Source: Geodermatophilaceae bacterium | GTDB taxonomy: Bacteria; Actinomycetota; Actinomycetes; Mycobacteriales; Geodermatophilaceae | DNA length: 64,000 bases | Reading direction: 5' to 3' | NCBI GenBank assembly: GCA_013695685.1 | Contig: JACCZY010000046.1 | Span: 5,464 to 69,463, forward strand | Part shown: piece after piece, positions 2,694 through 18,805 of the stretch | Layout of the letters: every line of letters begins with the position of its first letter | Numbering within the stretch: position 1 is the stretch's first letter | Notes under the pieces: generated by a model | The model's input: only the letters and a program-made list of their open reading frames with translations | Told to the model about the DNA's origin: nothing | Databases searched by the model: none | Made by a program: the position numbers and the translations under genes

Positions 2694-3827
2694 TCAGCCG
2701 GGAGTGAGGTCGACCAGCGGTGCCCCGCGGGCGTTGAGGGCGGTTTCGGTGCGTTCGCGGGAGAAGGGGGGCGCGATGCGCACGACGTCCGACGGTGCGT
2801 CGACGAAGGTCGGGACGTAGCCCACCTGCGTAATGTCGTAGCTGTCGTCCCCTGCCAGACCGAACGTGACCTCGACCATGACGCCGTCGCGGTGAGGGGG
2901 CGTGGGATCGGAGCTGTAAACCGCTTGCTGGGCAAGGAAGTTCCCCAGACCGTAGATCACCCACCGGCCGTCCGGCAGCCGCTCGATCGGCTGTACGACG
3001 TGCGCGTGGTGACCCACGATCAGGTCGATCTCCGGGGCCCGCATGATCTCGTCGACCACCTGCTCCTGGTAGCTCGAGGGTTGCTGGTCGAGCTCCTCCC
3101 CGAAGTGCAGGCTCACGACGACGATGTCCGCGCCGGACTGCGTGAGCCGGGCGGCATCGGCGCGGATGGCCGGCGGGTCGATCAGGTTCACCGCCCACGG
3201 CGCGGGGGACGGCAGGCCGTTCAGTGCGTACGTGTAGGACAGGTGCCCGACATCGACACCCTGTACGTCGTAGATGGTCGGCTCGGCGTGCTCCTTCCGA
3301 CTGCGTGCGCTGCCGGTGTGCTCGATCCCCACCCGGTCCAGGTTGTCCAGCGTCGCGTTGATCCCGTCCAGACCGAGATCCACTGTGTGATTGGACGCCG
3401 TACTGCACGCGTCGAAGCCGATCTTCTGCTGGTCCTCGGCCAGTTCGTACGGTGCGTTGAAGCGCGGATACCCGGCCAGGCCGACGTTGTCGTCGGACAG
3501 CGGGGTCTCCTGATGGCAGACTGCCCAATCCGCCGCGGCGACGATCGGCGCCACCTCGGCGAGCATTGGCATGAAGTCGTAGCCCTGCCCGCCGGCGTAG
3601 CGCCCGGCGCGCTCTATCAGGGCATCGCTGGGCAGCATGTCGCCGGTGAAGAGCAGCCGGACCGATTCTGTGGCGGTCGTCGGCGTCGGCGTCGTCGTGG
3701 GCGTCGGCGTCGTCGTGGTCGTGGGCGTGGTCGTTGTGGTCTCGGGAGTGGCCACCGACGACCCCTCGTCAGCTGGGGCGCAGCCGGTCACCAGCACTGC
3801 GATGGTGGCGGCGACGAGCAGTCTCAT
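2694..3827 (-). CDS. CapA/PGA_cap-family metallophosphatase-like lipoprotein
   Basis: Signal peptide with lipobox (AVLVTGC), then a Thr/Pro linker. LLFTGDM, ASNHTVD, VVSLHFG and IVGHHAHV are typical of CapA-type calcineurin-like proteins. ATGA overlap with the upstream gene. Confidence 0.75.
   Translation of the reverse strand: MRLLVAATIAVLVTGCAPADEGSSVATPETTTTTPTTTTTPTPTTTPTPTTATESVRLLFTGDMLPSDALIERAGRYAGGQGYDFMPMLAEVAPIVAAADWAVCHQETPLSDDNVGLAGYPRFNAPYELAEDQQKIGFDACSTASNHTVDLGLDGINATLDNLDRVGIEHTGSARSRKEHAEPTIYDVQGVDVGHLSYTYALNGLPSPAPWAVNLIDPPAIRADAARLTQSGADIVVVSLHFGEELDQQPSSYQEQVVDEIMRAPEIDLIVGHHAHVVQPIERLPDGRWVIYGLGNFLAQQAVYSSDPTPPHRDGVMVEVTFGLAGDDSYDITQVGYVPTFVDAPSDVVRIAPPFSRERTETALNARGAPLVDLTPG
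3672..3742 (-). repeat. Degenerate short tandem repeat encoding a Thr/Pro-rich linker (TTTTTPTTTTTPTPTTTPTPTT)
   Basis: On the plus strand it reads as reiterated ggcgtcg/gtcgtcgtgg units. It lies in frame within the CapA-like lipoprotein gene. Confidence 0.8.
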
Positions 3828-5377
3828 CGGGTGTCCCGGAGCACGATCCGGGCGACCGTACGACCGCTGGCGCCGAACACGCCGCCGCCCGGATGGGTGG
3901 AGGCTCCCGTCAGGTACAGCCCGGTGACATCGGGAACGCGGTGACCGGCGAGTTCGGGCAACGGCCGCCAGCCGAACATCTGGTCCAGCGACATGTCGAC
4001 GTGCATCACGTTGCCCCGCAGGAGTCCGAGTTCGCGTTCGAGGTCGAGCGGAGACTGCACGTACACGTGCTCGACTGTATCCGCGAAGCCTGGTGCGACC
4101 GTGCTGATCGCGTCGACGAGCCGGCGTGCCTCGCGCTCGGCGATGTCCGGCCAACGCTCGGCGACCAACTCGTACGGGTGCCACTGTCCCCACACCGTGA
4201 CGTTGTGCCGTCCAGGTGGTGCGATCGTGTCGTCGAAGGCGGAGAACGTCATGGCAACTACGGGTGGGCGGGTGGCGGGCCGACCGCACAGGTAGTCGGC
4301 GTACGCCTCCCGGAGCGCGTGTCTGGACGGCGCGATCAACTGCATCGCGCGGTACGACGACCCGTCGGCGGCGGCTGACGGGTAGCGGGGAAGGTCCGTC
4401 GTACCCAGTCGGACCGCCATGCCGATCCCGTTGCCGGCCCGGACCAGCCGGCGGACCCGGTCGGCCAGCGCAGCGGGTGCGCCCTCGCCCAGCAGCTGCA
4501 TGGTGGTGAGGACGTGGCAACCCGCCACCACGACCGCCGAACCGAGCACGTCGCCGGAGTCGGTGCGTACGCCGCTCACCCGCCCGCTCCCGGCGAGGAT
4601 CTCGATGGCCCCGTCACCGAGACGAATCTCGCCGCCGTCGGCTCGCAACCGGGAGATCAGCGCGGTGGTCAGCATGCCGCTGCCGCCCCTTGGATGTCCG
4701 GGCGCCCGCCGGTGCATGAGGCTCGTCCAGCCGACGAGGTCGGCGGTGGCCGGCTCATGCATCGGGGATCCCGACTGCGCACCGAGCCAGGACAGCGCGG
4801 TCTTGAGCCGCTCGTCGGAGAAGTGCGCGTCCAGCAGGGCGTCACCGCTGGTGAGGAATTGCCGCGACAGCTCTATGCCGGAGAGCCCGGTACGCCGCCC
4901 GAGCCCCCACAGTGAGCGGGCGATCCGCGTCGGTGTCGGAGCGCTCGCGAAGGCATCGAAGACCAACTCGTTCCTGGCCGCCCAGTCCTCGGCGAAGCCG
5001 TGATACGCCTCGGCGTCGCGTGCGCCGCAGACCGACTCGATCGAGGCGCAGGTGCGGTCCAGGTCGACGGAGAAGGTCAAGGCCACCTGGCCGCCGTCGG
5101 CCGTTCGGAACGGAGCGAAGCCCCACGGGTCCATGTCCTGGTACTGCAAGCCGTGCCGGGCCAGTTCCAGCTGCTCGATGATGCCGGTGTGGCGGATCAT
5201 CACGTGTGCACTGGAGCCCCTGTCCATCTGATAGCCGGGAAAGCGCTCCACTGTGGACACTGCGCCGCCTGGCACCGTGTCCCGCTCGAGAACCGTCACC
5301 GCCAGTCCGGCCTTCGCCAGGTAGCAGGCGCTGACGAGCGCGTTGTGCCCGCTGCCGATTACGACGACGTCAGGCAT
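3824..5377 (-). CDS. Phytoene-desaturase-family NAD(P)/FAD-dependent oxidoreductase (CrtI/CrtD-like)
   Basis: N-terminal dinucleotide fold DVVVIGSGHNALVSACYLAKAGLAVTVLE. The 517-aa length and C-terminal LYLTGASTHPGGGV are typical of the family. Confidence 0.8.
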   Translation of the reverse strand: MPDVVVIGSGHNALVSACYLAKAGLAVTVLERDTVPGGAVSTVERFPGYQMDRGSSAHVMIRHTGIIEQLELARHGLQYQDMDPWGFAPFRTADGGQVALTFSVDLDRTCASIESVCGARDAEAYHGFAEDWAARNELVFDAFASAPTPTRIARSLWGLGRRTGLSGIELSRQFLTSGDALLDAHFSDERLKTALSWLGAQSGSPMHEPATADLVGWTSLMHRRAPGHPRGGSGMLTTALISRLRADGGEIRLGDGAIEILAGSGRVSGVRTDSGDVLGSAVVVAGCHVLTTMQLLGEGAPAALADRVRRLVRAGNGIGMAVRLGTTDLPRYPSAAADGSSYRAMQLIAPSRHALREAYADYLCGRPATRPPVVAMTFSAFDDTIAPPGRHNVTVWGQWHPYELVAERWPDIAEREARRLVDAISTVAPGFADTVEHVYVQSPLDLERELGLLRGNVMHVDMSLDQMFGWRPLPELAGHRVPDVTGLYLTGASTHPGGGVFGASGRTVARIVLRDTR

Positions 5378-5951
5378 CGTCCACAGTGGACTGCACTGTC
5401 AGTGGCAGGCGCGCCCCCAACACCGCGAACGGTCGCGCGTCCCCGGGGAACAGGTGCTGTCGGGCGAGGTCGACGAAGCCCAGCGAGCGGTAGAGGCGCC
5501 ACGCCCTGGTCTGACCCTCCGGGGTGGACAGCAGCACCGCAGGGTGCGGCGCGTCCTCAAGCAACGTCAGCAGGATCGCGCAGCCCAGACCGGCACCTTG
5601 GCGGTCCGGTCGCACGTGCAGCTCGCACAGTTCCACGCTTCCGGGCAGCCATTGCGCGGCTACGTCGCGGTCGACCGCCCTGCGTACCTGGTCGTGCCAC
5701 CACTGTCCGGGCGCGGAGGTGTAGCCGTAGCCGAAGCCGAGCAGCACGCCGTCCCGGTCGAGCGCGGCTACCGCCCGGAACCCCGGCCGGTCGGCATGAG
5801 CCGTGGCATAGCCGATGCGGTTGTCCACCACGCTCGCGGAGTAGCCCATGGCTTCGGCGTAGATCGTCATCGCGTCGCGTACCCGAGCGACGAACTCGGC
5901 CGGTTCCCACCGCACGAGGCGCGCGTCTCGTCGATGCATCGTGCTGCTCAC
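5370..5951 (-). CDS. GNAT family N-acetyltransferase
   Basis: Acetyl-CoA-binding motif A, LHVRPDRQGAGLGCAILL, followed by RLYRSLGF. Overlaps the start of the downstream CrtI-like gene by 8 nt. Confidence 0.8.
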   Translation of the reverse strand: MSSTMHRRDARLVRWEPAEFVARVRDAMTIYAEAMGYSASVVDNRIGYATAHADRPGFRAVAALDRDGVLLGFGYGYTSAPGQWWHDQVRRAVDRDVAAQWLPGSVELCELHVRPDRQGAGLGCAILLTLLEDAPHPAVLLSTPEGQTRAWRLYRSLGFVDLARQHLFPGDARPFAVLGARLPLTVQSTVDDA

Positions 5952-5977
5952 GCCAGCAGCGTAGGCGTCCCGTCGGG

Positions 5978-6445
5978 TCAGTCGCCCACCTCGGCCGACG
6001 TACCGGCGGTGATGCGCAGCAGTTCGTCGTACGTCGTGGGGAACACCGCGGCGGGATGACCGGCCGAGGCCCAGACGATGTCGAAGGTGGCAAGTGCGAT
6101 GTCGACCAGCGTCCCGATCGGCTCCGGGTGCCCGAGAGGGGCGACCCCGCCGATCGGCTGACCGGTGTGCCGGCGGACGAACTCCGGATCGGCCCGGTTC
6201 AAGGCCGGTATGCCGAGCAGTCGCTCGACCCGGGCGGTGTCGACGCGATGGGCGCCGCTGGTGAGGATTAGCAAGGGTGTGCCCCCGGCGTCGAAGAGCA
6301 GGCTGTTCGCGATGGCCCCGACGTCTACGCCGACCTGCTCAGCGGCCAGTGCCGCCGTACGGGCGGTGCCCGGCAACTCTCGCACCTGGCCCGCGGAGCC
6401 CGCCGCTCGCAGGGCCTCGGCCACGGCGACGACATTGGGGTGCAT
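5978..6445 (-). CDS. YbaK/EbsC-family (aminoacyl-tRNA deacylase-like) protein
   Basis: 155 aa. LLFDAGGTPLLILTSGAHRVD and GGVAPLGH resemble YbaK/ProX editing domains. The ATG lies 4 nt after the stop of the LigD-pol gene. Confidence 0.7.
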   Translation of the reverse strand: MHPNVVAVAEALRAAGSAGQVRELPGTARTAALAAEQVGVDVGAIANSLLFDAGGTPLLILTSGAHRVDTARVERLLGIPALNRADPEFVRRHTGQPIGGVAPLGHPEPIGTLVDIALATFDIVWASAGHPAAVFPTTYDELLRITAGTSAEVGD

Positions 6446-6449
6446 GTGT

Positions 6450-7388
6450 TCATACTGGCGCAGCCGGCGTTTCGCTGTCGTCGCGGTCGGCCCACTCCAG
6501 CAGCGTGTCCAGGGAGTACGCGTTGTCATCGATGCCGGCGTGCAGGTCGCCCAACCGCACGTACCGTTCCGGCACCGTGGCGATGGTGAAGTCCCGCGGC
6601 TCGGCGTCTGCAATCTCGGCCCAGGTGATCGGAGTCGATACGAGGGCCTCGGCCACCCCCCGCACCGAATACGCGGCCCGGATGGTGTGGTCGCGCGCGT
6701 TCTGGTTGTAGTCCACGAAGACCGTTTTCGGGTCACGGTCCCGTCGCCACCAGGTCAGGTCGACGAGATCTGGCAGGCGGCGTTCCACCTCGCGGGCGAA
6801 TGCCCGGGCGGCCCGGCGTACCTGCGGGAACTCCCACCGTGGCTCGATCCGGACGTAGACGTGCAGCCCCTTACCCGCGGAGGTTTTCGGCCACCCGACT
6901 GCGCCGAGCTCATCGAGCAGCTCGTGGACGACTGCCGCGACCCGGCGAACGTCGTCGTAGTCGGCCCGCGGCATCGGGTCGAGGTCGATCCGCCACTCGT
7001 CGGGCTCCTCGACGTGTCCGCGGCGGGAGTTCCAGGGGTGGAACTCCACTGTGGACATCTGCACCGCCCAGACGACGTCGGCGACGTGGGTGACGCACAG
7101 CTCGGAGGCGTGCCGACCGGACGGGAAGTCGACGCGCACCGTCTGGACCCAATCCGGGGCCCCGCGGGGCAGCCGCTTCTGGTGCACCTTCTCGCCGGAG
7201 ACGCCCTCAGGAAAGCGGTGCAGCATGCACGGCCGCTCGCGCAGCGCCCGGACGATCCCGTCGCCGACGGTCAGGTAGTACCGCGCCAGATCGAGCTTGG
7301 TCTCACCTCTGGCCGGGAAGTACACCCGGTCGGGGTTGCTGATCCGCACCGTGCGGTCGCCGATCTCCAGTTCGACCGAGTCGGCCAC
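6450..7388 (-). CDS. Stand-alone LigD polymerase/primase domain protein (NHEJ archaeo-eukaryotic primase fold)
   Basis: AEP motifs are present: WRIDLDP (DxD), KTSAGKGLHVYV (SGKGxH) and FVDYNQNARDHT. There is no ligase or phosphoesterase domain in the ORF. Confidence 0.85.
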   Translation of the reverse strand: MADSVELEIGDRTVRISNPDRVYFPARGETKLDLARYYLTVGDGIVRALRERPCMLHRFPEGVSGEKVHQKRLPRGAPDWVQTVRVDFPSGRHASELCVTHVADVVWAVQMSTVEFHPWNSRRGHVEEPDEWRIDLDPMPRADYDDVRRVAAVVHELLDELGAVGWPKTSAGKGLHVYVRIEPRWEFPQVRRAARAFAREVERRLPDLVDLTWWRRDRDPKTVFVDYNQNARDHTIRAAYSVRGVAEALVSTPITWAEIADAEPRDFTIATVPERYVRLGDLHAGIDDNAYSLDTLLEWADRDDSETPAAPV

Positions 7389-8055: not shown

Positions 8056-9267
8056 GTGCCCGCGCGTCGATCGTTGCCACGCGAGGTCTACGTCCTGGCT
8101 ACTGTCGCGTTCTTCGTCGCGGTCGGTTACGGGATCCTGGCTCCGGCGATCCCGGATTTCGCGCGGGACTTCGGGGTGGGTCGCACCGCCGCCGCGCTCG
8201 TCGTCAGTGCGTTCGCGTTCATGCGGCTGGTGTCTGCCTTCGGCAGCGGCGGGCTGGTCGACCGCTTCGGCGAGCGCTGGATCATGGCCATCGGGATCGG
8301 CATCGTCGCCACGACCAGCGCCGCAGCGGGCTTCGCCCAGAACTACCCGACGTTGCTGATCCTGCGCGGTTTGGGCGGTGTGGGATCGGCGATGTTCACC
8401 GTGTCGGCTGCGGCGTTGCTGATCCGGCTCGTCGGTAACGAACAGCGCGGCCAGGCCAGCGGAATCTTCGCCGGTGGGTTCCTCACCGGCGGGATCATCG
8501 GCCCGGTCTTCGGCGGTCCACTCACCGAGATCTCACTGCGGTTGCCGTTCTTCGTGTACGCCGCAACCCTGACCATGGCCGGGTTGGTCGCCGCCATCGC
8601 GCTGCGCAACACCGCACTGTCCACCGCACCGGTCGAGCGGCGCGGCCTGCGCGGCAGCGGCGTCGCGACCGCGTTGCGCGATCCGGCGTACCGGGCGGCA
8701 GTGGGGGCCAACGTGGCGGTGGGCTGGACGATCTTCGGAGTCCGGTTCGCGACGATCCCGCTGTTCGTCACCGAGGGGCTCCGGCTGGGCGCGGTCTGGA
8801 CCGGGGTCGGACTGGGTATCTTCGCCGTGGCGAATGCGGTGCTGCTCTGGCCGGCCGGGCGGTTCACCGACCGGCGGGGCCGGCGTCCTGTCCTGATCGC
8901 CGGTACGACGACGTGCGCGATCGGGCTGGCGTTGCTCGTCCTCCCGCCGGCGCTGCCGCTGTTCCTCGCGTCCATGGCCATCACCGGGGCCGGCTCCGCC
9001 CTGTTGACGGTGGCACCCGCGGCCGTCCTGGGTGATGTTGCGCCGGCGCGTAGCGGCTCGGTCGTCGCCGTCTTCCAGATGGCCGCCGACGTCGGCGCGA
9101 TGACGGGGCCGCTGTTGGCCAACGCCCTGGTCGACTCGTTCGGGTACGACGCCGGATTCGGCCTGACGGCGCTGGTGATGCTGGCGGCAGCTGGTTTGGC
9201 GGTGGTGATGCCGGAGACCCGAGACCGGGGCGCCACCACACCGGCCCGGCCGGGACGAGCCACCTAG
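8056..9267 (+). CDS. MFS transporter
   Basis: About 12 predicted TM helices. MFS loop motifs GGLVDRFGERW and GRFTDRRGRRPVL are present. I chose an internal GTG start because the upstream part of the 495-aa ORF is not hydrophobic. Confidence 0.8.
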   Translation: MPARRSLPREVYVLATVAFFVAVGYGILAPAIPDFARDFGVGRTAAALVVSAFAFMRLVSAFGSGGLVDRFGERWIMAIGIGIVATTSAAAGFAQNYPTLLILRGLGGVGSAMFTVSAAALLIRLVGNEQRGQASGIFAGGFLTGGIIGPVFGGPLTEISLRLPFFVYAATLTMAGLVAAIALRNTALSTAPVERRGLRGSGVATALRDPAYRAAVGANVAVGWTIFGVRFATIPLFVTEGLRLGAVWTGVGLGIFAVANAVLLWPAGRFTDRRGRRPVLIAGTTTCAIGLALLVLPPALPLFLASMAITGAGSALLTVAPAAVLGDVAPARSGSVVAVFQMAADVGAMTGPLLANALVDSFGYDAGFGLTALVMLAAAGLAVVMPETRDRGATTPARPGRAT

Positions 9268-9311
9268 CACGCGTACTGTCACCGTACGTCCATCGTCGGT
9301 CGGAGGACCCC

Positions 9312-10469
9312 GTGATGCAGTCGAGTCGTCTCCTGCTCCGCCGCACGCTTGTCCGGAGCTCGGTCGTAGCGGCATCGGCGCTCATGGCAGCCGGGCTGGC
9401 TGTCGTCCCGGCGTCGGCGGCTGATCCATTGCGAACCACCGAAGCTGCGGGGGCATCGCAGTTCATCGGGGAGGAAACTCTCCCTACGGGTCTGATGTTC
9501 GAAGGGACAGAGGTCGGTGGGCTGTCCGGGATCAGCTACGACTCCGCGCGCGATGTCTATTACGCGATCTCAGACGATCGCAGCCAGCTGGACCCGGCGC
9601 GGTTCTACACCCTGCAGATCGACCTGTCCGACGGTTCCCTCGACAGCGGGGACGTGTCTGTTATCAACGTGACCACGCTGCGCGATCCGCGAGGACGCCC
9701 CTTCCCGGAACTGAGCCTGGACCCAGAATCCATAGCGCTCACCCCCCGCCGCACGCTCATCATCACGTCCGAGGGAGACGCGACTCAGCTCATCGACCCC
9801 TTTGTGCGCGAGTTCAGCCTGAACGGACGGCAACTCAATAACGCATTCGTGCCGGGCTACTACGACCCGGCAGCCGACGGAACTTCCGGTGTACGGAACA
9901 ACCTGGGGTTCGAGAGCGCCGGCATCACGCCGGACGGGGACTACCTGTTCACCGGGACCGAGAACGCCCTGGCCCAGGACGGCCCGACCGCCACGCTGAC
10001 GACTACGAGCCCGGCACGGATACTGCGCTATGACCAGTCCGGTCGACTGGACAGGGAATTCGTGTACGTCGTCGAACCGGTGCAGGACCCACCGGTACCA
10101 GCCGACGGGTTCGTGGTGAACGGTCTGGTTGAGCTGTTGCCGCTCGGGCCGACTCGGCTGCTGGCGATGGAGCGCAGCTTCTCCACCGGCGTCGGTAATG
10201 ACGCCCGCGTCTACCTGGTGGACACCGCGGAGGCTACGAATGTCCGGGGGGTGCCGAAGCTGCCCGAGGACCTGTCGCTGCTTCGGGTAGTGCGCAAGAC
10301 CCTCGTCGTCGACCTGGACGTTCTGGGTATCACGTTGGACAACCTGGAGGGATTGACCTTCGGGCCGGCGCTACCCGATGGGCGGCAGAGCGTGCTGATC
10401 GTCAGTGACAACAACTTCTCCACCACCCAGGTGACCCAGTTCCTCGCTTTCGCGGTCTCAGGCCCCTGA
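9312..10469 (+). CDS. Secreted protein resembling the 'esterase-like activity of phytase' family
   Basis: Signal peptide ending in PASAAD. GLSGISYD, DPESIA, LEGLTFG and VSDNNF recall PF13449-type beta-propeller proteins; this assignment is from memory. Confidence 0.6.
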   Translation: MMQSSRLLLRRTLVRSSVVAASALMAAGLAVVPASAADPLRTTEAAGASQFIGEETLPTGLMFEGTEVGGLSGISYDSARDVYYAISDDRSQLDPARFYTLQIDLSDGSLDSGDVSVINVTTLRDPRGRPFPELSLDPESIALTPRRTLIITSEGDATQLIDPFVREFSLNGRQLNNAFVPGYYDPAADGTSGVRNNLGFESAGITPDGDYLFTGTENALAQDGPTATLTTTSPARILRYDQSGRLDREFVYVVEPVQDPPVPADGFVVNGLVELLPLGPTRLLAMERSFSTGVGNDARVYLVDTAEATNVRGVPKLPEDLSLLRVVRKTLVVDLDVLGITLDNLEGLTFGPALPDGRQSVLIVSDNNFSTTQVTQFLAFAVSGP

Positions 10470-10669
10470 GTTCACCGCCGCGACGATGAGAGCGCGCTCC
10501 GGTTCTTGTCGGCCCGCACGGCCAGGCGACTGACGGCGAGCACGCAGACGGAAGGCGTCCCCTCAGCGGGACGAGTTGTGCAGCGACGATTTGCTGACGA
10601 ACCACGTCCCGCAGCGTGTCGAGAACGCCGATCCATCGATCGACTCTCTGGCGAAGGCGTTGACGGTTC

Positions 10670-10691
10670 TGTCGGTGCTGGGGTTTACTAT
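10670..10691 (+). promoter_or_regulatory. RecA-NDp / PafBC-type DNA-damage promoter motif (TGTCGGTG-N8-TACTAT)
   Basis: tgtcggtg (10670-10677), 8 nt, then tactat (10686-10691). This matches the actinobacterial LexA-independent damage-promoter consensus tTGTCRgtg-N8-TAnnnT as I recall it. Confidence 0.6.
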
Positions 10692-10699
10692 CCCCTCAT

Positions 10700-10715
10700 T
10701 CGAACACAAGTTCGA
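10700..10715 (+). promoter_or_regulatory. LexA (SOS) box TCGAACacaaGTTCGA
   Basis: Perfect match to the actinobacterial/mycobacterial SOS box TCGAAC-N4-GTTCGA. It begins 9 nt downstream of the putative -10 hexamer, so it would overlap the transcription start. Confidence 0.8.
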
Positions 10716-10936
10716 ATGCCTGCCGGATCGAAGGTCTTTCGCGAAGCCGTCGTCTCGGCAGGACAGGGGCCAGGCTGTGGCCGGTCTGGCCCCGCTGGCG
10801 AGGACGCTCGCCGGAAGCAGCGGGTCTCGACCCCCGCTGTTTCGCCAGCTCGCTCACGGGTCCGGCGGTGCGGAGAAATCGCCGGCGGACCCGTGCTCCC
10901 GGATATAGATCGCCTCATGTAGCGAAGGGAGAAGTG

Positions 10937-11284
10937 GTGACCAGGCTGCATGCCGACCCCATCGACGTGGAGCGCGGCATGGTCGATGGCGGCAGCGGTG
11001 CCGAGCGGATCGAGGGACCTGCCCACTTCCACTGGGGCCGGCGGTCCTACGTCGTGCACGCCGTGCTCGATCACTGGATGGAGGCCGGGAACTGGTGGCG
11101 GCGGACCGGCCGTCCCCGAACCGAGCCCGGCGGTGCGGCACCCCGGCTCGACGACGGCGAGCGGGAGGTGTGGCGGGTCGAGGCCCGGCAGCTGCACGCC
11201 GGAAGGGACGCCCCGGTGGGCGTCTTCGATCTGAACTTCGACTGGAGCGTGGGGCGATGGTCATTGATTCGCGTGCACGACTGA
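10937..11284 (+). CDS. Small conserved protein, DUF6504-like (first gene of the DnaE2 operon)
   Basis: SD-like AAGGGAG lies 6 nt upstream of the GTG (alternative GTG at 10934). WMEAGNWW, EVWRVEA and GVFDLNFDWSVGRWSL match my memory of DUF6504 proteins. Overlaps the next ORF by 28 nt. Confidence 0.65.
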   Translation: MTRLHADPIDVERGMVDGGSGAERIEGPAHFHWGRRSYVVHAVLDHWMEAGNWWRRTGRPRTEPGGAAPRLDDGEREVWRVEARQLHAGRDAPVGVFDLNFDWSVGRWSLIRVHD

Positions 11285-11742
11285 CACGTGCACCACTGGC
11301 AGAGAGCCAGCCGACCCAACTCGCGTTGCTGCGGCCGAGGAGAGCGGTGTCCCCCTCCGCGCTCGTTCTGCTCGGTCAGGCGCAGGTTGGCCTGGCCGAG
11401 GCCGCTCAGTTGCCGTCCTCCGGTGAGCGGTACGCCGGGGCGCATCTGGCCGCGCTGCGGGCGACCGCGGCGGTGCTGGCGGCGCGGGCGAACCCGGACA
11501 CCCATGCAGGCAGCGGGTCGAGACGACGGCGCCGGCTGCGCAGCGCCTGGGATCTGCTGTGCGAGGTCGCTCCGGAGATGGGGGAGTGGGCGGCGTTCTT
11601 CGCCGCGGGTGCGCCCAAGCGCGCGGCGGCCGAGGCCGGTGTGACGCGAGCGGTCACGGCCCGCGAGGCAGATGACCTGGTTCGCGACGTCGAGACGTTT
11701 CTCGCTGTCGTGGCCACCACCGTCGGCGTCTGCCCGTCCTGA
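11257..11742 (+). CDS. SAV_6107-family HEPN-like domain protein (apparently lacks the Rx4-6H catalytic motif)
   Basis: ERYAGAHLAALRATAAVLAAR, RSAWDLLCEVAPEMGEWAAFFA and READDLVRDVETFL match my memory of the SAV_6107 HEPN family. The stop overlaps the dnaE2 ATG (TGATG). Confidence 0.65.
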   Translation: MVIDSRARLTRAPLAESQPTQLALLRPRRAVSPSALVLLGQAQVGLAEAAQLPSSGERYAGAHLAALRATAAVLAARANPDTHAGSGSRRRRRLRSAWDLLCEVAPEMGEWAAFFAAGAPKRAAAEAGVTRAVTAREADDLVRDVETFLAVVATTVGVCPS

Positions 11743-14700
11743 TGAGTGATCCGTTCGTGCATCTGCACGTGGCCTCCGGCTACTCGCTGCGCTACGGCGC
11801 CAGCCACCCCGCGACGCTGGTCGCGCGAGCGGCCGAGCACGGGATGGACACCCAGGCGCTCACCGATCGGGACGGCCTCTACGGCGCGGTGAAGTTCGTC
11901 AATGCCTGCCGCAGCGCCGGTATCCGGCCGGTCTTCGGGGTGGACTTGGCTGTCCGCCCGGCCGCCCATCCGGCGTTGAAAGGGGCGCCGGCCCGCAAGT
12001 CGCCGGCGCGGGGCGGGATCAGCGTGGACCCACGTCTGCCCCGGGTCACCCTGCTGGCGCGCACCGGTAAGGGCTGGGCCTCGCTGGCCCGGCTGATCAG
12101 CGCCACCCACCTCGGCGGGGAGCGGGGTACGCCGGTGAGCAGCCTGGAACTCATCGCCGAGCACTCCGAGGGCGTGCTGGTACTGCTCGGGCCGGAGTCC
12201 GAGGTCGGCCGGGCGCTGGCCGAGCGACGTCCCGACCTGGCCCGGGCACATCTGGGGCGGTGGCGGGAGGCACTGGGCCGCCGCCAGGTACTCGCCGAGG
12301 TGGTGCACCACCGAGCCAGGGGGGACCGGGTGCGGGCTGGTGCACTGCTGGGCTTCGCCGCCGAGCACCGGCTGCCCGCCGTACTGACCAACGCGGTGCG
12401 CTACGCCGAGCCGCATGACGCCCCGACCGCCGACGTGCTGGATTCCGCTCGCCGGCTCGTCCCACTGGATTCGCGGCACATCGACCGGCGTAATGCCGAG
12501 GGATACCTGAAGTCGGGCAAGCAGATGGCCGAGGTCGCCGAGGAGATCACCGGGCCGGACCGGGACGCCGCCGGCAGGCTGCTGGCTGCGACCCGGCAGG
12601 TGGCCGAGCGCTGCGCTGTCGATCCACGCGCCGACCTGGGAATCGGGGAGGTGCACTTTCCGGAACTGTCGGTCACTCGCCGGCCCCGGGAGGCTGCGGC
12701 CGGACCACAGGATGTGTTGCGGCTGCGCTGCGAGGCCGGCTTCGGCCGCCGGGGAATGGACCCAGGGCCCGTCGTACGTGGCCGGCTGGATGACGAGCTT
12801 GAAATCATCGGGACGCGCGGCTACCCGTCGTACTTCCTCACCGTCGCCGACGTGACCGACCTGATCCGGGCGATGAAGGTCAGGGTGGCCGCGCGGGGAT
12901 CGGGCGCGGGCAGCCTGGTGAACTACCTGCTCGGGATCTCCGACGTCGACCCGATCCGGCACCGGCTGCTGATGGAGCGGTTCCTCTCCCCGCTGCGCCA
13001 GGCGCTGCCCGACATCGACGTCGACGTGGAGTCCGCCCGCCGGATGGAGGTCTACGACGCCATCCTGGACCGCTTCGGTGCCGAGCGGTGCACGTGCGTG
13101 TCGATGATGGACACCTACCGGGTCCGGCACGCCATCCGCGACGTCGGCGCGGCGCTCGGCATGCCGCCGGGGGAGATCGACACCATCGCCAAGGCGTTCC
13201 CGCACATCCGGGCAAACCAGGTCAAAGCGGCGCTGTGCGACCTGCCGGAACTGCGGGCCAGCGGACTGGGCAGCGACCAGCTGACGGTGCTCTTCGACCT
13301 GGTCGAGCGGCTGGACGGCCTGCCCCGGCACATCGCCCTGCACCCGTGCGGGGTGCTGCTGTCCGATGCCACCCTGCTCGACCGCACGCCGGTGGAGGCC
13401 AGCTACCTCGGCTACCCGATGAGCCAGTTCGACAAGGACGACGTGGAAAACCTCGGCCTGCTCAAGCTCGACGTACTCGGCATCCGCATGCAGTCGGCGA
13501 TGGCCTACGCGATGGACGAGGTGGCCCGGGTCGACGGGCACCGGCCCGACGTCGACACCGCGCCGTTGGACGATCCGGCGACGTACGGGCTGATCCAGTC
13601 CACCCGGACGCTGGGGTGCTTCCAGATCGAGTCGCCCGGTCAGCGCGAACTGGTCGGCAAGTTCTCCCCGGAGACCTTCACCGACATCATCATCGACATC
13701 TCGCTGTTCCGGCCGGGTCCGGTCAAGAGCGACATGGTGACGCCGTTCCTGCGCGCCCGGCAGGGGTGGTGCGAGCCGCAGTACCCGCATCCGGATCTTG
13801 AGGACGCCCTGGCCGAGACGTACGGCGTGGTCGTCTTCCACGAGCAGGTGCTGGAGATCGTGGCGGTGCTCACCGGCGTGAGCCTGGCCGAGGCCGATGA
13901 GGTACGCCGGGCGCTCGGGGAGTTCGACGCGCACGCCGAGGTGCAGGCCTGGTTCATCCCGGCCGCGCTCGGCCAGGGCTATCCGCTCGACGTGGTCGAG
14001 CAGGCGTGGAATGTGCTCGCCGCGTTCGCCTCGTTCGGGTTCTGCAAGGCGCATGCGGCGGCGTTCGCGCTCCCGACGTACCAGTCGGCGTGGCTCAAGG
14101 CGCACCACACCGCGGCGTTTCTCGCCGGCGTGCTCACCCACGATCCCGGTATGTACCCCAAACGGCTGATCCTCGACGACGCCCGCAACTTCGGGATCGC
14201 GATCCTCCCGCTGGACGTCAACGTCTCCGACCAGGCCTATCGGGTGGAAAAGCAATCCGAGGGCTACGGCATCCGGCTGTCACTGACCGACGTCAAGGGC
14301 GTCACCGAGGCGGAGGTGGCCGGAATCGTGGCCGGGCGGCCGTACGCGTCGTTGTCGGACTTCTGGCGCCGCGCCGGGGTGTCGCGCCCGATCGCCGAGC
14401 GGCTCGTGCTCGCCGGCGGGTTCGACTCGACGTACGCGATCGGATCGAGGATGCCGGTACGCCGACGCAACCAGGTGACCCGCCGCGACCTGCTGCTGCA
14501 GGTGGCCGAGCTCGACGTCTGGAGCCGGGCGACCGCCCGAGCCGATCGGGCGCTGGCGCCCCGCAGACGTTCCGCCCACCGTCCCGCCGCCGGCGCCGCA
14601 GCCGCAGCCGGCGCACCGGACGGGCTGTCGGTGCGGGACTCGATACGAGACGCTGCCGCGCGGCAGTCACGTGCCACCGCCGGGGTCGCCCCGCAGCAGG

Positions 14701-15449
14701 TGCAGCTCGCCCTGGATCTCGGCGCGGGCTCCGGCTCGGGCTCCGGCGCGGACTCCGGCGCGGGGTCCGATTCAGGGGAGCGCCGCTCAGGACTGCCGGA
14801 GATGACCGAGGCGGAGCTGGTCCGCGCCGAGTTGGAGATCCTGGGGCTCGATGCCAGTCGGCACATCGTCGACTTCTACTCGACGTTCCTCGATGCCTTG
14901 GGGGTGGTCCGCTCCCGCGACCTGCTGGGGTGCAGGAGCAAGGCGGAGATTCTCGTCGCCGGGGTCAAGGTGGCCACCCAGACCCCACCGGTGCGCTCCG
15001 GTCGCCGGGTGGTCTTCGTGACCCTGGACGACTCCACCGGCCCGGTCGACGCGACGTTCTTCGAGGACGCCCAGGGGCCGTATGCGATGACGGTGTTCCA
15101 CTCCTGGCTGCTGGTCGTCCGCGGCGTGGTCCGCCGGACGGGAAGACGGGGCGTCTCGCTGCGGGCCACCGGCTGCTGGGAGCTTCCGGCGCTTCGCCAG
15201 ACCTGGGAATCGGTGGGAATGCCCGGTGTGTGGGAGGCGATGGACAGGTCCGCCGCGGACCTCACCGAGCAGGCGCTGCAGGGGGCGGCGGCGAGCCACT
15301 CCTCCCGGCCGGTGATGGCTCGCCCGGTGCTGGTTCACCCGTCGGGCTTCCGGATGTCGCCGTACGCCGACCTGAAACCGCCCGGGGAGGACGGCAAGAC
15401 CGTGCCGCGCAAGCTGTGGCACTCCAGCCCGGGCAGCTCCGGACACTGA
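11742..15449 (+). CDS. dnaE2: DnaE2-type (error-prone-like) DNA polymerase III alpha subunit
   Basis: PHP domain (FVHLHVASGYS, LTDRDGLYGAV). Polymerase core motifs LPDIDVDVES, GLLKLDVLGI, FQIESPGQ, SLFRPGPV and FGFCKAHAAAFA. C-terminal OB fold (ILVAGVKVATQTPP...VVFVTLDDSTGPVDATFF). The N-terminus resembles DnaE2 more than DnaE1. Confidence 0.85.
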   Translation: MSDPFVHLHVASGYSLRYGASHPATLVARAAEHGMDTQALTDRDGLYGAVKFVNACRSAGIRPVFGVDLAVRPAAHPALKGAPARKSPARGGISVDPRLPRVTLLARTGKGWASLARLISATHLGGERGTPVSSLELIAEHSEGVLVLLGPESEVGRALAERRPDLARAHLGRWREALGRRQVLAEVVHHRARGDRVRAGALLGFAAEHRLPAVLTNAVRYAEPHDAPTADVLDSARRLVPLDSRHIDRRNAEGYLKSGKQMAEVAEEITGPDRDAAGRLLAATRQVAERCAVDPRADLGIGEVHFPELSVTRRPREAAAGPQDVLRLRCEAGFGRRGMDPGPVVRGRLDDELEIIGTRGYPSYFLTVADVTDLIRAMKVRVAARGSGAGSLVNYLLGISDVDPIRHRLLMERFLSPLRQALPDIDVDVESARRMEVYDAILDRFGAERCTCVSMMDTYRVRHAIRDVGAALGMPPGEIDTIAKAFPHIRANQVKAALCDLPELRASGLGSDQLTVLFDLVERLDGLPRHIALHPCGVLLSDATLLDRTPVEASYLGYPMSQFDKDDVENLGLLKLDVLGIRMQSAMAYAMDEVARVDGHRPDVDTAPLDDPATYGLIQSTRTLGCFQIESPGQRELVGKFSPETFTDIIIDISLFRPGPVKSDMVTPFLRARQGWCEPQYPHPDLEDALAETYGVVVFHEQVLEIVAVLTGVSLAEADEVRRALGEFDAHAEVQAWFIPAALGQGYPLDVVEQAWNVLAAFASFGFCKAHAAAFALPTYQSAWLKAHHTAAFLAGVLTHDPGMYPKRLILDDARNFGIAILPLDVNVSDQAYRVEKQSEGYGIRLSLTDVKGVTEAEVAGIVAGRPYASLSDFWRRAGVSRPIAERLVLAGGFDSTYAIGSRMPVRRRNQVTRRDLLLQVAELDVWSRATARADRALAPRRRSAHRPAAGAAAAAGAPDGLSVRDSIRDAAARQSRATAGVAPQQVQLALDLGAGSGSGSGADSGAGSDSGERRSGLPEMTEAELVRAELEILGLDASRHIVDFYSTFLDALGVVRSRDLLGCRSKAEILVAGVKVATQTPPVRSGRRVVFVTLDDSTGPVDATFFEDAQGPYAMTVFHSWLLVVRGVVRRTGRRGVSLRATGCWELPALRQTWESVGMPGVWEAMDRSAADLTEQALQGAAASHSSRPVMARPVLVHPSGFRMSPYADLKPPGEDGKTVPRKLWHSSPGSSGH
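14721..14778 (+). repeat. Low-complexity Gly/Ser/Ala/Asp-coding repeat inside dnaE2 (GAGSGSGSGADSGAGSDSG)
   Basis: Reiterated ggctcc/ggcgcg hexamers, in frame, located between the polymerase core and the OB-fold domain. Confidence 0.7.
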
Positions 15450-15562
15450 CCTCATCCGTCGGAGCTGCCCTCCAGACATGCGGGCGACCGCATCCTGCGC
15501 CCCGGACTTGCTGGAGTCGGGTCCGCAACTCAACTGCGTTACGCGTACACCATGATGTCGTT

Positions 15563-17182
15563 GTGGCAGCCGACCGGGTCCTCGCCCGGCGGATACTCGA
15601 GGCGGTGGCAGCCGCCGGTGTAGACACCGTGTTCGGGCTGCCCGGCGTACACAATCTTGCGTTCTGGCGGGAGCACGGGCCGGACCTGCCGCGGATCGTC
15701 GGTGTCCGCCACGAGCAGACGGCGGTGTACGCCGCAGACGGGCAGGCCCGGGCGAGCGGCGGGCTCGGTGTCGCGCTCACGACCACCGGTCCGGGCGCCG
15801 CCAACGCCCTCGCCGCATTCGGGGAGGCCGCCGCCTCGGCCTCGCCCGTCCTGCTGGTCGCCACCGAGATCTCCACCAGGCTTCGGCGGCCCGGTGTGCT
15901 GCGTGGTGTCCTGCATGAGTCCGCCGACCAAGCGGGACTCTTCGCGCCGCTGGCCAAGGCCGTCTACCGGCCGCGGACGCCCGCGAACGTGGTGGAGCAG
16001 CTGGCGGCGGCGATCCAGACCGCGCTCACGTCCCCCCGAGGCCCGGTGTATGTCGACGTCCCGACCGACCTGCTGAGCCATTCCGCGCCGGCCGGTGCCC
16101 TGCAGCCGACGACGACCGTCGTGCCCGATCCCGAGGACATCGACCGCCTCCGCGGCGAGCTCGACGCGGCTCCGCGGATCGTGATCTGGGCAGGTGGCGG
16201 CGTCGTGCAGGCCGACGCCTCGGCCGAACTGGCCCGGCTGGCCGAGCTGCTGAGGGCACCGGTCGTGACCAGCTGGGCGGGCCGGGGTGTGCTCCCCCCG
16301 GAGCACCCGTGGCTGGTCGGAGCACCGCCACACGAGCCGGCCGTCGCCGATCTCGTCGCCGGTGCCGACCTGCTCCTCGCGGTGGGTACCGGCTTCGACG
16401 CGACGACCACCCGCAATTGGACGATGCCTATGCCGGCCCGACTGGCGTGCGTCAACGTCGACGCCGACGAGATGACTAAGAACTACTCGCCCGATGTCGC
16501 CGTGGTCGGTGACGCGAAGCTGGTCCTCGCTGCCCTCGCGGAGCAGGTCGCCCGGCCATCGGGGACCAACCCGGTCGCGGGTCTGCGGGCCGCCGTACGG
16601 GCGCGGCTGGCCGACGACCCAGCCGGGCCGGAACCGCTGCAGCTGTTGCGGTCGATCGGGGCAGCCATCGCAGGCGCCGACATCACCGTCATCGCCGACA
16701 TGGCGATCCCCGGCTACTGGTGGGTGGCCTACGGTGCCGTGGCCGGGCCGCGGCGGCTGCAGTACCCGCTCGGCTGGGGCACTCTCGGGTACGCGCTTCC
16801 CGCAGCCGTCGGTGCCGCGACGGTGCGCCCGGCGCTCGTCCTCTGCGGCGACGGCGGCCTCCTCATGGGCGTCGGTGAGCTCGCCACCCTGGCCCAGGAG
16901 GAGCTGCCGGTGACAGTCCTGGTCGTGGACGACGGGGGCTACGGCATGCTCCGCTACGACCAGAACCGTCTCGGTGACCCCCATCGGGGCGTGGATCTGC
17001 GGTCACCGGACTGGTCGCAGCTCGGCGCGGCGTTCGGCCTCCCCACCGAGATCGTCGATGGCGTCGGTGCACCGCTGGAGCAGGCGCTGCGCCGTGCGCT
17101 TGGCTCCGGCGGTCCTCGGCTCGTCGCCGTAGCGGCCCGGTTCGTCCCCCCGCGGACGACCTCGCCCCGCTGGAACGACTGA
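15563..17182 (+). CDS. Thiamine-pyrophosphate-dependent enzyme (acetolactate-synthase-like family)
   Basis: Three-domain TPP layout: GVDTVFGLPG, TTGPGAANA, and the TPP motif CGDGGLLMG...VLVVDDGGYG. GTG start chosen; the upstream part of the 1058-aa ORF overlaps dnaE2 in another frame. Confidence 0.85.
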   Translation: MAADRVLARRILEAVAAAGVDTVFGLPGVHNLAFWREHGPDLPRIVGVRHEQTAVYAADGQARASGGLGVALTTTGPGAANALAAFGEAAASASPVLLVATEISTRLRRPGVLRGVLHESADQAGLFAPLAKAVYRPRTPANVVEQLAAAIQTALTSPRGPVYVDVPTDLLSHSAPAGALQPTTTVVPDPEDIDRLRGELDAAPRIVIWAGGGVVQADASAELARLAELLRAPVVTSWAGRGVLPPEHPWLVGAPPHEPAVADLVAGADLLLAVGTGFDATTTRNWTMPMPARLACVNVDADEMTKNYSPDVAVVGDAKLVLAALAEQVARPSGTNPVAGLRAAVRARLADDPAGPEPLQLLRSIGAAIAGADITVIADMAIPGYWWVAYGAVAGPRRLQYPLGWGTLGYALPAAVGAATVRPALVLCGDGGLLMGVGELATLAQEELPVTVLVVDDGGYGMLRYDQNRLGDPHRGVDLRSPDWSQLGAAFGLPTEIVDGVGAPLEQALRRALGSGGPRLVAVAARFVPPRTTSPRWND

Positions 17183-17203: not shown

Positions 17204-18046
17204 ATGGTCACCCCCGCCACGATGTCCCCGCCACGCACGGTTCCGGCCGGCATTCCCCGACCCGAGTACGTCGGCAAGCCTGGGCCTGCGCCGTACACCG
17301 GGCCGGAGGTCAAGGACGCCGACACCATCGCGGCGATGCGGGTGTCCGGCCGGCTGGCCGCCCAGGCGCTGGCCGAGGTAGGACGGCAGGTAGCGCCCGG
17401 CGTCACCACTGACGAGCTCGACCGGATCGGCCACGAGTTCCTCATCGCCCACGGCGCCTATCCGTCGACCCTCGGCTACAAGGGCTTCCCGAAATCGCTG
17501 TGTACGTCGATCAACGAGGTGATCTGCCACGGCATCCCGGACGCGACGGTGCTGTGCGACGGCGACATCGTCAACGTCGACATCACCGGCTACCTCGAGG
17601 GGGTGCACGGCGACACCGACGCGACCTTCCCCGTCGGGGAGATCGACGAGGAGTCCCGACTGCTGATCGAGCGCACGCATGAGGCGATGATGCGCGGCAT
17701 CAGAGCTGTCAAGCCCGGCCGATCGATCAGTGTGATCGGCCGGGTGATCGAGTCCTACGCCAAGCGCTTCGGGTACGGCGTGGTCCGCGACTACACCGGC
17801 CACGGCATCGGCACCGCGTTCCACACCGGCCTCGTCGTGCTGCACTACGACGAGCCGCGTGTGAACACCGTGCTGGAGCCCGGGATGACCTTCACGGTCG
17901 AGCCGATGCTCACCCTGGGTTCGATCGAGCACGACGTCTGGCCGGACGGGTGGACCGTGGTGACGCGTGACGGCCGCCGCAGCGCACAGTTCGAGCACAC
18001 CCTGCTCGTGACCGACGACGGCGCTGAGATCCTGACCCTCCCTTAG
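17204..18046 (+). CDS. map: Type I methionine aminopeptidase
   Basis: Metal-ligand motifs [18 protein letters not shown] and QFEHT. N-terminal extension as seen in actinobacterial MapB. Confidence 0.95.
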
Positions 18047-18055: not shown

Positions 18056-18805
18056 ATGTCCCCGGACGACCGCTTCGTGCCAGGCGGCGCGGCGCTGTCC
18101 GCGCGGACCGCCGCGGTCTGGTCGGTCCTGTACGGCGAGCTTGGCCGCCGACCCGGCGCTGAACTGTCCATTGTGGACGTCGGGGGTGGTACCGGCGGAT
18201 TCGCCGTCCCCCTGGCTCAACTGGGGCACGTGGTCACCGTCGTCGACCCGAGCCCGGACGCGCTGGCCACGCTGGACCGCCGGGCGCAGACCGCCGACGT
18301 GGCTGATCGAATCCGGGCGATCCAGGGCGACACGGACACGCTGCTCGACTTGGTCGCGCCGGACAGCGCGGACCTGGTGTTGTGCCACAGCCTGCTGGAG
18401 GTCGTGGACGACCCAGAGCGGACCCTCCGGCGCGTGGCCGCCGTCCTGCGCGCCGGCGGCTGCCTCAGCGTCCTCGTCGCCAACCGGGCGGCTGCGGTCC
18501 TCGCCCGGGCGCTGGGCGGGCACTTCGCCGAGGCGCAGCGGGCACTCGCCGACCCCGAGGGGCGCTGGGGGGATGGCGACGGGAGCACCCGCCGCTTCGA
18601 CACCGGCCGGATCCTTGCCATGCTCGATGGGGTCGGCCTGTCCGTCGAGCAACTGCACGGGGTCCGGGTGGTCGCCGATCTGGTTCCGGGCGCGGTGGCC
18701 GACGGGGCGGGGGAGTCGCTGGTGGACGTCGAACTCGCGTTGGCCGCCGTTTCGCCGTACCGGGACATCGCGACCCAACTGCACGTCCTCGCCCGCAAGC
18801 CCTGA
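18056..18805 (+). CDS. Class I SAM-dependent methyltransferase
   Basis: SAM-binding motif I, IVDVGGGTGGFAVPLA, with a post-I acidic residue (VVDPS). Confidence 0.8.
   Translation: MSPDDRFVPGGAALSARTAAVWSVLYGELGRRPGAELSIVDVGGGTGGFAVPLAQLGHVVTVVDPSPDALATLDRRAQTADVADRIRAIQGDTDTLLDLVAPDSADLVLCHSLLEVVDDPERTLRRVAAVLRAGGCLSVLVANRAAAVLARALGGHFAEAQRALADPEGRWGDGDGSTRRFDTGRILAMLDGVGLSVEQLHGVRVVADLVPGAVADGAGESLVDVELALAAVSPYRDIATQLHVLARKP

Follow-up and report, generated by a model that had tools for sequence, protein, structure and literature searches.

Which kind of polymerase system is encoded by an actinobacterial operon that lies behind an SOS promoter and joins a DnaE2-type polymerase to two small genes, with neither imuA′ nor imuB beside them? 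We analysed such an operon in 64,000 nucleotides (nt) from a Geodermatophilaceae bacterium (GenBank assembly GCA_013695685.1, contig JACCZY010000046.1, positions 5,464 to 69,463), a stretch of ~70% G+C that we call the window and whose nearest protein relatives come from Geodermatophilaceae metagenome-assembled genomes. Our results make it likely that the operon is LexA-repressed, probably also PafBC-activated, and encodes an ImuA- and ImuB-independent translesion (mutagenic) system of the DnaE2B class, in which the HEPN-family protein is an accessory factor shared with other polymerase modules. The operon and its promoter comprise the following features:

10660..10691, + strand: promoter, with TTGACG (−35-like, 10660-10665), TGTCGGTG (10670-10677), 8 nt, and TACTAT (−10, 10686-10691)
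10700-10715, + strand: LexA (SOS) box TCGAACACAAGTTCGA, a perfect actinobacterial box 8 nt past the −10 hexamer
10716..10904, + strand: structured 5′ leader RNA of ~190 nt with five hairpins, a candidate cis-regulatory element
10937..11284, + strand: imuB-C (Pfam DUF6504), GTG start, 115 amino acids, AAGGGAG ahead of the start
11257..11742, + strand: HEPN_SAV_6107 family gene (hepn), ATG start, 161 amino acids
11742..15449, + strand: dnaE2B, ATG start, 1235 amino acids, with PHP, DNA_pol3_alpha, finger, HHH_6 and OB domains

An initial annotation, made from the sequence alone, had described three coupled genes with a 28-nt overlap and a TGATG junction, a LexA and RecA-NDp promoter ahead of them, a DnaE2-type polymerase, a likeness of the DUF6504 protein to the C-terminal module of ImuB, and the absence of ImuA′ and ImuB. 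All of this held up, on the evidence given below. Its proposal that the two small proteins replace ImuA′ and ImuB was not supported for the HEPN protein.

The DnaE2B operon and its SOS-type promoter

The three genes are tightly packed: imuB-C and hepn overlap by 28 nt, and hepn and dnaE2B meet in a common TGATG. The gene models are supported by Pfam matches and, in all three frames, by third-position GC; in addition, the 115- and 161-residue models were reproduced by independent gene callers (ENA and Logan assemblies).

By sequence, the polymerase is a non-replicative DnaE2-type enzyme of the DnaE2B subgroup, because seven of the nine metal ligands in the PHP domain of M. tuberculosis DnaE1 (alignment to 5lew/7pu7) are replaced or lost in it, and because over its first 365 residues it shares 56, 49 and 42% identity with the N-termini of three proteins published as DnaE2B, the closest being that of Nocardioides euryhalodurans. 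The ligand changes are H16 to A, D23 to Y, H48 to R, H107 to R, loss of C158, D226 to A and H228 to R, with H14 retained and E73 replaced by D (numbering read by eye from the alignment); the PDIDVD catalytic motif is intact. Identity to three DnaE2A proteins from actinobacterial and proteobacterial imuA-imuB-dnaE2 cassettes was 30–33%, and the match to M. tuberculosis DnaE1 reached only 370 bits. A published genome table lists one DnaE1, one DnaE2B and no DnaE2A for Geodermatophilus obscurus.

Two further features are conserved in the DnaE2B proteins. The first is a QLxLxL-type motif, VQLALDLG (residues 984-993, ~nt 14691-14720), which lies in a disordered low-complexity linker ahead of the OB fold; the QLALDL motif is kept by DnaE2B orthologues (55 compared). 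Non-canonical motifs of the QLPLx type have been noted previously in actinobacterial DnaE2 (PMC3919608). The second is a C-terminal tail, SGFxxSPYADxKPxG...PRKLWHSSPGSSG, which occupies the last ~35 residues (~nt 15342-15446), is likewise kept in the orthologues and does not occur in the DnaE2A proteins compared. We also observed that Streptomyces plasmids (NZ_CP117710.1, 67462-70209, and ~140 others) carry a gene annotated as dnaE whose product matches the window polymerase at ~50% identity over residues 5-924 of the latter and is much closer to it than DnaE2A or DnaE1 are.

The DUF6504 protein is, as judged by sequence comparison, a stand-alone ImuB C-terminal domain (ImuB-C). It matches PF20114 (DUF6504) above the cut-off (E 3e-13) and is 44.5% identical (blastp E 1e-22) to the published stand-alone ImuB-C of the N. 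euryhalodurans system (QBR94233). All nine published ImuB-C sequences that we compared are recognised by a profile of its relatives. Its connection with full-length ImuB is weak when tested directly and strong through intermediates: PF20114 aligns with the final ~75 residues of two proteins annotated as ImuB (428-500, E 7e-4; 425-499, E 3e-4), in both cases just under the gathering score, and hhalign of DUF6504 against ImuB C-termini gives a probability of 66% (E 5.6e-5) over 34 columns. These ImuB sequences, taken from annotated proteobacterial imuA-imuB-dnaE2 plasmid loci, contain the motif to which the initial annotation had pointed, as ERI..EWW ... WFLHG. The AlphaFold 2 model of ImuB-C is all-beta with six strands (predicted local distance difference test score, pLDDT, 76). 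Foldseek found no neighbour for it in the PDB (best E 1.3, probability ≤0.15), and the DUF6504 profile found nothing among PDB sequences at E ≤10. An all-beta model with no PDB neighbour agrees with the published description of ImuB-C as a beta-barrel of new fold (PMC12926913). ImuB-C is ~40–50% identical across the genome loci described below, and tblastn of the protein against a plasmid collection gave one marginal match only.

The DUF6504 profile also matches three long proteins, P0047 (1196 residues), P0077 (2898) and P0097 (4656), in 6–11 separate stretches (E 2e-17 to 6e-14); the matches could reflect repeats of a tryptophan-rich beta unit or be artefacts of composition.

SOS control of the operon is strongly supported by its promoter sequence. 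A perfect TCGAAC-N4-GTTCGA lies upstream of the DUF6504 gene in 80 of the 81 related loci scanned, the exception (L003) being cut off upstream, and the box is thus not a chance occurrence. Directly upstream of it, the arrangement TTGAC..TGTCGG..TACnnT is conserved in 79 distinct related loci, and the strict mycobacterial RecA-NDp form, TGTCRGTG-N7-9-TANNNT, is found in 16 of these 79, the window included. TGTCGGTG is therefore predicted from sequence to be a PafBC/RecA-NDp-type element (TGTCGG). In mycobacteria TGTCGG is the PafBC site, and imuA′B is under dual LexA/PafBC control (PMC8682763). As in the mycobacterial imuA′-imuB and recA promoters, TGTCGG(TG) stands upstream of the −10 hexamer and the LexA box in the region of the transcription start; in contrast to them, both elements, the PafBC site being a prediction, share a single compact promoter in the window, where the LexA box lies 8 nt past the −10 hexamer and is followed by a structured leader of ~190 nt.

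We searched the 64-kb window for further mutasome components by tblastn with four ImuA, four ImuB, two PolY and one RecA sequence, with zero matches. The 64 kb contain neither a RecA- or ImuA-like gene nor imuB, any other Y-family polymerase gene or a second dnaE, and the combination that defines the canonical ImuA-ImuB-DnaE2 mutasome (imuA or imuA′ and a catalytically dead Y-family imuB near dnaE2) does not occur there. With the mycobacterial ImuA′-ImuB-DnaE2 mutasome (Warner et al. 2010; PMC10421592; PMC11791113) the window shares the predicted damage-inducible, LexA/PafBC-type control, a C-family polymerase with an inactive PHP domain and, by analogy, the ImuB C-terminal beta-barrel as the element that binds DnaE2. 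It differs in lacking a RecA-fold ImuA′, the Y-family body of ImuB, the clamp motif and the RecA-NT motif. Its polymerase, moreover, is of the DnaE2B rather than the DnaE2A group and has its own tail and QLxLxL-type motif.

A core of this kind is already published. Stand-alone ImuB-C and ImuA-free mutasome variants were described in 2019 (PMC6511836, Nucleic Acids Res), and DnaE2B has since been recognised as a group in genomes that lack imuA or imuB (PMC12926913, Nucleic Acids Res 2026). The latter work distinguishes two modules found only in actinobacteria, DnaE2B-PolY-[ImuB-C]-RecA and DnaE2B-[ImuB-C], and models both as complexes with AlphaFold; its supplement rates the DnaE2B-ImuBC dimers and the DnaE2B-PolY-ImuBC-RecA tetramers as good complexes (pLDDT ~85–89), and ImuB-C contacts the DnaE2 PHP domain in the AlphaFold 3 models. 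The idea of an ImuA- and ImuB-free core of DnaE2B and ImuB-C (PMC6511836; PMC12926913) is hence not new, and the window proteins are closest to the DnaE2B-PolY-[ImuB-C]-RecA module. They share with the published modules the polymerase group, the stand-alone ImuB-C, the phylum and the absence of imuA and imuB (for the window, within 64 kb), and most relatives of the window carry PolY too. The published lists, however, contain only DnaE2B, ImuB-C, PolY and RecA: HEPN, DUF6504, SAV_6107 and methyltransferase are not named in the supplements of PMC12926913, nor HEPN in its main text. In the clade of the window, an HEPN_SAV_6107 gene lies between imuB-C and dnaE2B and a methyltransferase gene between dnaE2B and polY, the window itself being without polY.

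HEPN and methyltransferase genes at polymerase loci

The HEPN protein matches PF18726 over profile positions 1-97 of 98 (E 3.5e-36). The HEPN superfamily fold is an up-down bundle of four helices that carries an insert between helices 2 and 3. The AlphaFold 2 model of the window protein (pLDDT 82) has helices at 33-50, 55-77, 97-126 (kinked) and 135-156, residues 78-96 forming a disordered insert rich in arginine, and its top PDB matches in Foldseek are HEPN proteins (2hsb, 1wol, 2q00, 4nqf, 3o10), at weak scores (best E 0.088, none <0.001). Invariant in the family are RYAxAHLAALR, EWAxFFAAGAxKRAAAEAG and READDLxRD. HEPN proteins active as RNases are recognised by an Rx4-6H motif where helix 3 ends, and a 2013 survey scores the HEPN_SAV_6107 family 'No' for it (PMC3710099). 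The initial annotation had reported no such motif. This is correct for the canonical site, which reads K121-R122-AAA-E126, without histidine, but an invariant R58-x4-H63 is present in predicted helix 2. Because the canonical site lacks its histidine, a non-catalytic role is more likely, and RNase activity would not be expected.

The same survey places HEPN_SAV_6107 in the HEPN-M clade, to which HEPN-MNT toxin-antitoxin pairs are related (PMC3710099); the predicted fold is a helical bundle whose nearest solved structures, at the weak scores given, are HEPN proteins. Unlike the HEPN-MNT pairs, the window protein has no Rx4-6H at helix 3 and no adjacent nucleotidyltransferase; it is under LexA control, and its partners are translesion-polymerase genes and a class I S-adenosylmethionine (SAM)-dependent methyltransferase. 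The survey gives no fusions or gene context for the family (PMC3710099). In the plasmid collection, tblastn found no match to the HEPN protein. Rv3395A, of unknown function, which adjoins M. tuberculosis imuA′ and is divergently transcribed, was considered as a possible HEPN homologue.

To place the operon among its relatives, one genome per species was scanned with a 30-sequence DUF6504 alignment, which yielded 503 confirmed relatives, and the best 80 loci were analysed with hidden Markov models. The order DUF6504, HEPN_SAV_6107, DnaE2B was found in every one of these 80 that had enough sequence. In most loci there follow a class I SAM methyltransferase of ~250–290 residues and then a DinB-type polymerase (NCBIfam 'DNA polymerase IV'), which, from its sequence, is apparently active. 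Junctions within the cassette are often 4 nt; at the hepn/dnaE2B junction the genes overlap in 32 of the 77 loci measured and lie 0–30 nt apart in most others. The loci come from Geodermatophilaceae, Mycobacteriales and Frankiales metagenome-assembled genomes, Jiangellales, Acidothermaceae, Nocardioides, Marmoricola and Embleya. The usual cassette of the clade thus has five genes, imuB-C, hepn, dnaE2B, methyltransferase and polY, and appears to be new.

The identifiers of published proteins fit this order. One number is skipped between ImuB-C and DnaE2B and again between DnaE2B and PolY in Janibacter and Kineococcus, between ImuB-C and DnaE2B in Ornithinimicrobium, and between DnaE2B and PolY in Nocardioides, as would be left by hepn at the first position and the methyltransferase gene at the second. 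The methyltransferase was not found in published descriptions of DnaE2B/ImuB-C systems.

Downstream of dnaE2B, the window departs from the usual cassette:

15458-17182: thiamine pyrophosphate (TPP)-enzyme gene, inserted before the methyltransferase gene
17204-18046: M24 peptidase gene, inserted between dnaE2B and the methyltransferase gene
18056..18805, + strand: class I SAM-dependent methyltransferase, 249 amino acids, with Methyltransf_11/25/12/23 matches

The window methyltransferase is 48–76% identical to the cassette methyltransferases and is their orthologue, displaced 2.6 kb downstream of dnaE2B by the TPP-enzyme and peptidase genes. The cassette methyltransferase shows distant full-length similarity to CmoM, far below the cut-off. 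In most cassettes its gene separates dnaE2B from polY, and in loci of the types HEPN-methyltransferase-PolY and DnaE2A-HEPN-methyltransferase it follows hepn directly; coordinates in relatives are 14627-15442 (L009), 15170-16042 (L038), 8782-9582 (L094) and 8616-9371 (L098). No polY is present nearby in the window, in L007 or in Modestobacter (L095), and a search for a remnant after the window methyltransferase gene found none. A related contig (L001) retains the methyltransferase-polY pair. The window has lost polY from this locus.

Several variant loci were observed. One lacks dnaE2B (L096, 8485-9190; DUF6504-HEPN-methyltransferase-PolY, the methyltransferase gene fragmented), and another lacks both DUF6504 and dnaE2B (L098, 7833-10695; HEPN-methyltransferase-PolY); the two occupy the same chromosomal site, beside DUF3040 and TgpA/MoxR genes. 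A contig binned as a Spirochaetaceae metagenome-assembled genome (L028, JAJAYQ010000020.1) contains a typical actinobacterial DUF6504-HEPN-DnaE2B cassette with a LexA box, and its taxonomic placement is probably a binning error.

The HEPN family extends well beyond these cassettes; it is large, with 5041 clusters at E ≤0.001 among the 8000 candidates examined. Its contexts were sampled by individual protein look-ups and a metagenome scan, whose 80 best matches we classified; the sample stops short of the far end of the family, which includes its namesake, Streptomyces avermitilis SAV_6107. The 80 metagenome loci fall into the following arrangements:

27 loci: DUF6504-HEPN(-DnaE2B...)
2 loci: DUF6504-HEPN-methyltransferase(-PolY), no DnaE2
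19 loci: HEPN-methyltransferase(-PolY)
2 loci: DnaE2A-HEPN(-methyltransferase)
4 loci: HEPN-ImuA′-ImuB
11 loci: HEPN with no such partner despite at least 1 kb downstream
15 loci: too short for classification

The HEPN gene thus adjoins a polymerase-module gene or the cassette methyltransferase gene in 54 of the 65 classifiable loci. The order HEPN-methyltransferase-PolY is seen in L098, L110, L115, L118, L132 and L159, HEPN-ImuA′-ImuB in L141, L148, L151 and L176, and DnaE2A-HEPN-methyltransferase in L134 and L157; in L094 the genes run ImuA′ (PF27531), ImuB, DnaE2A, HEPN, methyltransferase. Perfect LexA boxes lie directly before hepn in HEPN-methyltransferase-PolY loci, and between dnaE2A and hepn. 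HEPN cores are 50–66% identical across all context classes. HEPN_SAV_6107, usually with one SAM methyltransferase, is a LexA-controlled companion of at least four translesion-polymerase architectures, an association that appears to be new. Judged by these contexts, the protein is a partner-agnostic companion of several SOS polymerase modules and no stand-in for ImuA′ or ImuB, because the family adjoins both canonical imuA′-imuB-dnaE2A genes and methyltransferase-polY pairs free of DnaE2. Our literature searches returned no mention of DUF6504 or of HEPN with LexA and dnaE2, and nothing relevant for HEPN and ImuB.

One metagenome contig (L113) contains two inverted HEPN-methyltransferase pairs that point apart (1663-3371, − strand; 5148-6856, + strand).

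A structured leader RNA ahead of the operon

The 221 nt from the LexA box to the imuB-C start are conserved in Geodermatophilaceae, with insertions and deletions that are not multiples of three. For the window leader, the minimum free energy comes to −113 kcal/mol (z-score −4.4). Of the leader's loops, one reads CUCGACCC invariantly and another GGGGAAGCG, and their CCCC and GGGG runs could pair. We ran RNAalifold on 5 and on 18 loci and built covariance models from five (R1) and then 19 (R2) sequences. The models find the leader in 29 of 88 loci, on the + strand only and always directly upstream of the first cassette gene. Carriers include Frankiales, Acidothermaceae, Jiangellales, Embleya, one HEPN-ImuA′-ImuB locus and one HEPN-methyltransferase-PolY locus. 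Copies were located, among others, at:

L001: 9724-9904
L002: 9717-9900
L007: 1573-1761
L008: 1969-2156
L082: 9714-9904
L043: 9757-9933
L151: 9625-9763
L098: 7851-8041

In the model-fitted alignment, 92% of the cells are paired (37–43% in slid controls), and both partners vary in 58 of the 64 pairs. When 18 sequences were aligned independently (MAFFT/RNAalifold), compensatory changes were still seen in 22 of 27 predicted pairs, together with the invariant CUCGACCC loop and the GGGGAAGCG loop. Rfam contained no match to the leader even at E ≤1. A leader RNA with strong covariation thus precedes the operon and appears to be new; it probably adds post-transcriptional control.

Two other explanations of the leader were rejected. 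One was a hidden protein gene: third-position GC is poor in the open reading frames at 10506-10922 (0.59) and 10576-10908 (0.77), the longer one has no Pfam match, and the relatives' insertions and deletions do not come in multiples of three. The other was an intrinsic terminator or attenuator, for which the U-run after the last hairpin is lacking.

Proposed mechanism, alternatives and genomic surroundings

We propose that DNA damage would derepress the operon, after which the ImuB-C beta-barrel would dock on the inactive DnaE2B PHP domain in the way that published AlphaFold models show for homologous pairs. DnaE2B could reach the sliding clamp either through its own QLALDL motif or through a DinB-type PolY encoded elsewhere in the genome, and the complex would then extend across lesions at low fidelity. 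Our best guess for the HEPN protein is a small regulatory or assembly subunit acting at a step common to the DnaE2A, DnaE2B and DinB-type systems, with the clamp, RecA-coated single-stranded DNA and polymerase hand-off as candidate targets; it probably works with the co-conserved methyltransferase. The structured leader RNA probably forms a post-transcriptional layer of control.

A more tentative extension of this scheme is that the HEPN protein and the methyltransferase form an unrecognised general accessory or regulator of actinobacterial SOS polymerases (DnaE2A/ImuA′B, DnaE2B/ImuB-C and PolY), with gating by the leader RNA, possibly including sensing of a damage signal, in addition to LexA and PafBC. 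In mycobacteria, drug-resistance mutations are driven by DnaE2-dependent mutagenesis, a process whose subunits are being actively studied; the core of DnaE2B and stand-alone ImuB-C was catalogued only in 2026. HEPN and methyltransferase genes lie in or beside four polymerase gene arrangements with the same SOS box. If the two proteins do take part, the published component lists would be incomplete, and the leader RNA, if its role is confirmed, would be a third regulatory layer on damage-induced mutagenesis.

Several observations weigh against our main reading, an ImuA- and ImuB-independent DnaE2B system with a shared HEPN accessory factor. The polY gene is missing from the window locus, which may therefore not be a complete, working system. 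Nonomuraea gerenzanensis has DUF6504-DnaE2B without HEPN, and hepn appears to be lacking in Tessaracoccus, Arthrobacter, Cryobacterium and Pseudarthrobacter, whose published identifiers are consecutive. The 11 partnerless loci among the 65 classifiable ones show that the HEPN family is not exclusive to polymerase cassettes; solitary copies that we examined have no LexA box and neighbour a BldD-like regulator and pyrR-pyrB-pyrC. Foldseek support for the HEPN fold is weak, as noted above. Locus frequencies, finally, are skewed to close relatives, because both samples consist of the 80 best matches to window proteins.

A possible, though not the favoured, alternative is that the HEPN protein and the methyltransferase form an independent SOS two-gene module, for example an RNA- or nucleotide-directed one that is growth-arresting or protective, and merely share a LexA-controlled neighbourhood with the polymerase. 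The two genes are indeed the most persistent pair, with their own LexA box after dnaE2A or before hepn-methyltransferase-polY, and they occupy a conserved chromosomal site with DUF3040, TgpA and MTHFR neighbours. RNA is the usual target of HEPN domains (PMC3710099), the methyltransferase distantly resembles CmoM and some HEPN genes are solitary. However, hepn is wedged between imuB-C and dnaE2B with frames that overlap or abut on both sides, which is hard to square with mere neighbourhood, and it directly precedes imuA′-imuB in four loci; the canonical Rx4-6H RNase motif, moreover, is absent. Should this alternative be true, the pair would still be an uncharacterised, widespread member of the actinobacterial LexA regulon.

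It is unlikely that the operon encodes a self-sufficient three-protein mutasome, as the initial annotation had proposed, with the ImuB-C-like and HEPN-like proteins taking over the scaffolding by ImuB and ImuA′ for DnaE2. The genes are always adjacent and tightly coupled in the clade, imuA, imuB and polY are missing from the window, DnaE2B has its own clamp-type motif, and two Geodermatophilaceae relatives (L007 and L095) are also without a nearby polY, all of which would suit such a complex. Yet the HEPN gene clusters with bona fide ImuA′ and ImuB in five loci (L094, L141, L148, L151 and L176), so that the protein is not their functional replacement, and also stands beside methyltransferase-polY in the absence of DnaE2 or ImuB-C. 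Nor does the number of three proteins hold for the clade: in most relatives the operon continues as a five-gene cassette with a methyltransferase and an apparently active PolY, and the window retains the methyltransferase. In the published models, RecA and not an HEPN protein fills the position of ImuA (PMC12926913; PMC6511836).

That the polymerase is the replicative (or a second) DnaE1 of the organism, with the small genes as hitch-hikers, is effectively refuted: the NCBIfam DnaE1 model scores marginally above the error-prone model (675.7 versus 656.3 bits) and the top PDB matches are replicative alpha subunits, the PDB entries including no DnaE2 or ImuB structure, but both scores are far below their cut-offs (1002 and 939 bits), seven of nine PHP ligands are lost, identity to published DnaE2B is 42–56%, a perfect LexA box precedes 80 of 81 related loci and the related G. 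obscurus has a separate DnaE1.

The favoured reading of a DnaE2B system with a shared HEPN accessory factor concerns the operon itself; its surroundings are as follows. Upstream neighbours are genes for a LigD Prim-Pol, DoxX and a phytase-like protein, and downstream neighbours are those for the TPP enzyme, the M24 peptidase, the SAM methyltransferase and a CNNM transporter. The LigD gene (6450-7388, − strand), 3.5 kb upstream of the cassette, encodes a stand-alone primase-polymerase of the non-homologous end-joining type. The same gene lies 1.7–2.7 kb upstream of the cassette in relatives L001 (7337-8266) and L002 (6311-7252), and its proximity probably reflects synteny at the family level, outside the polymerase system.

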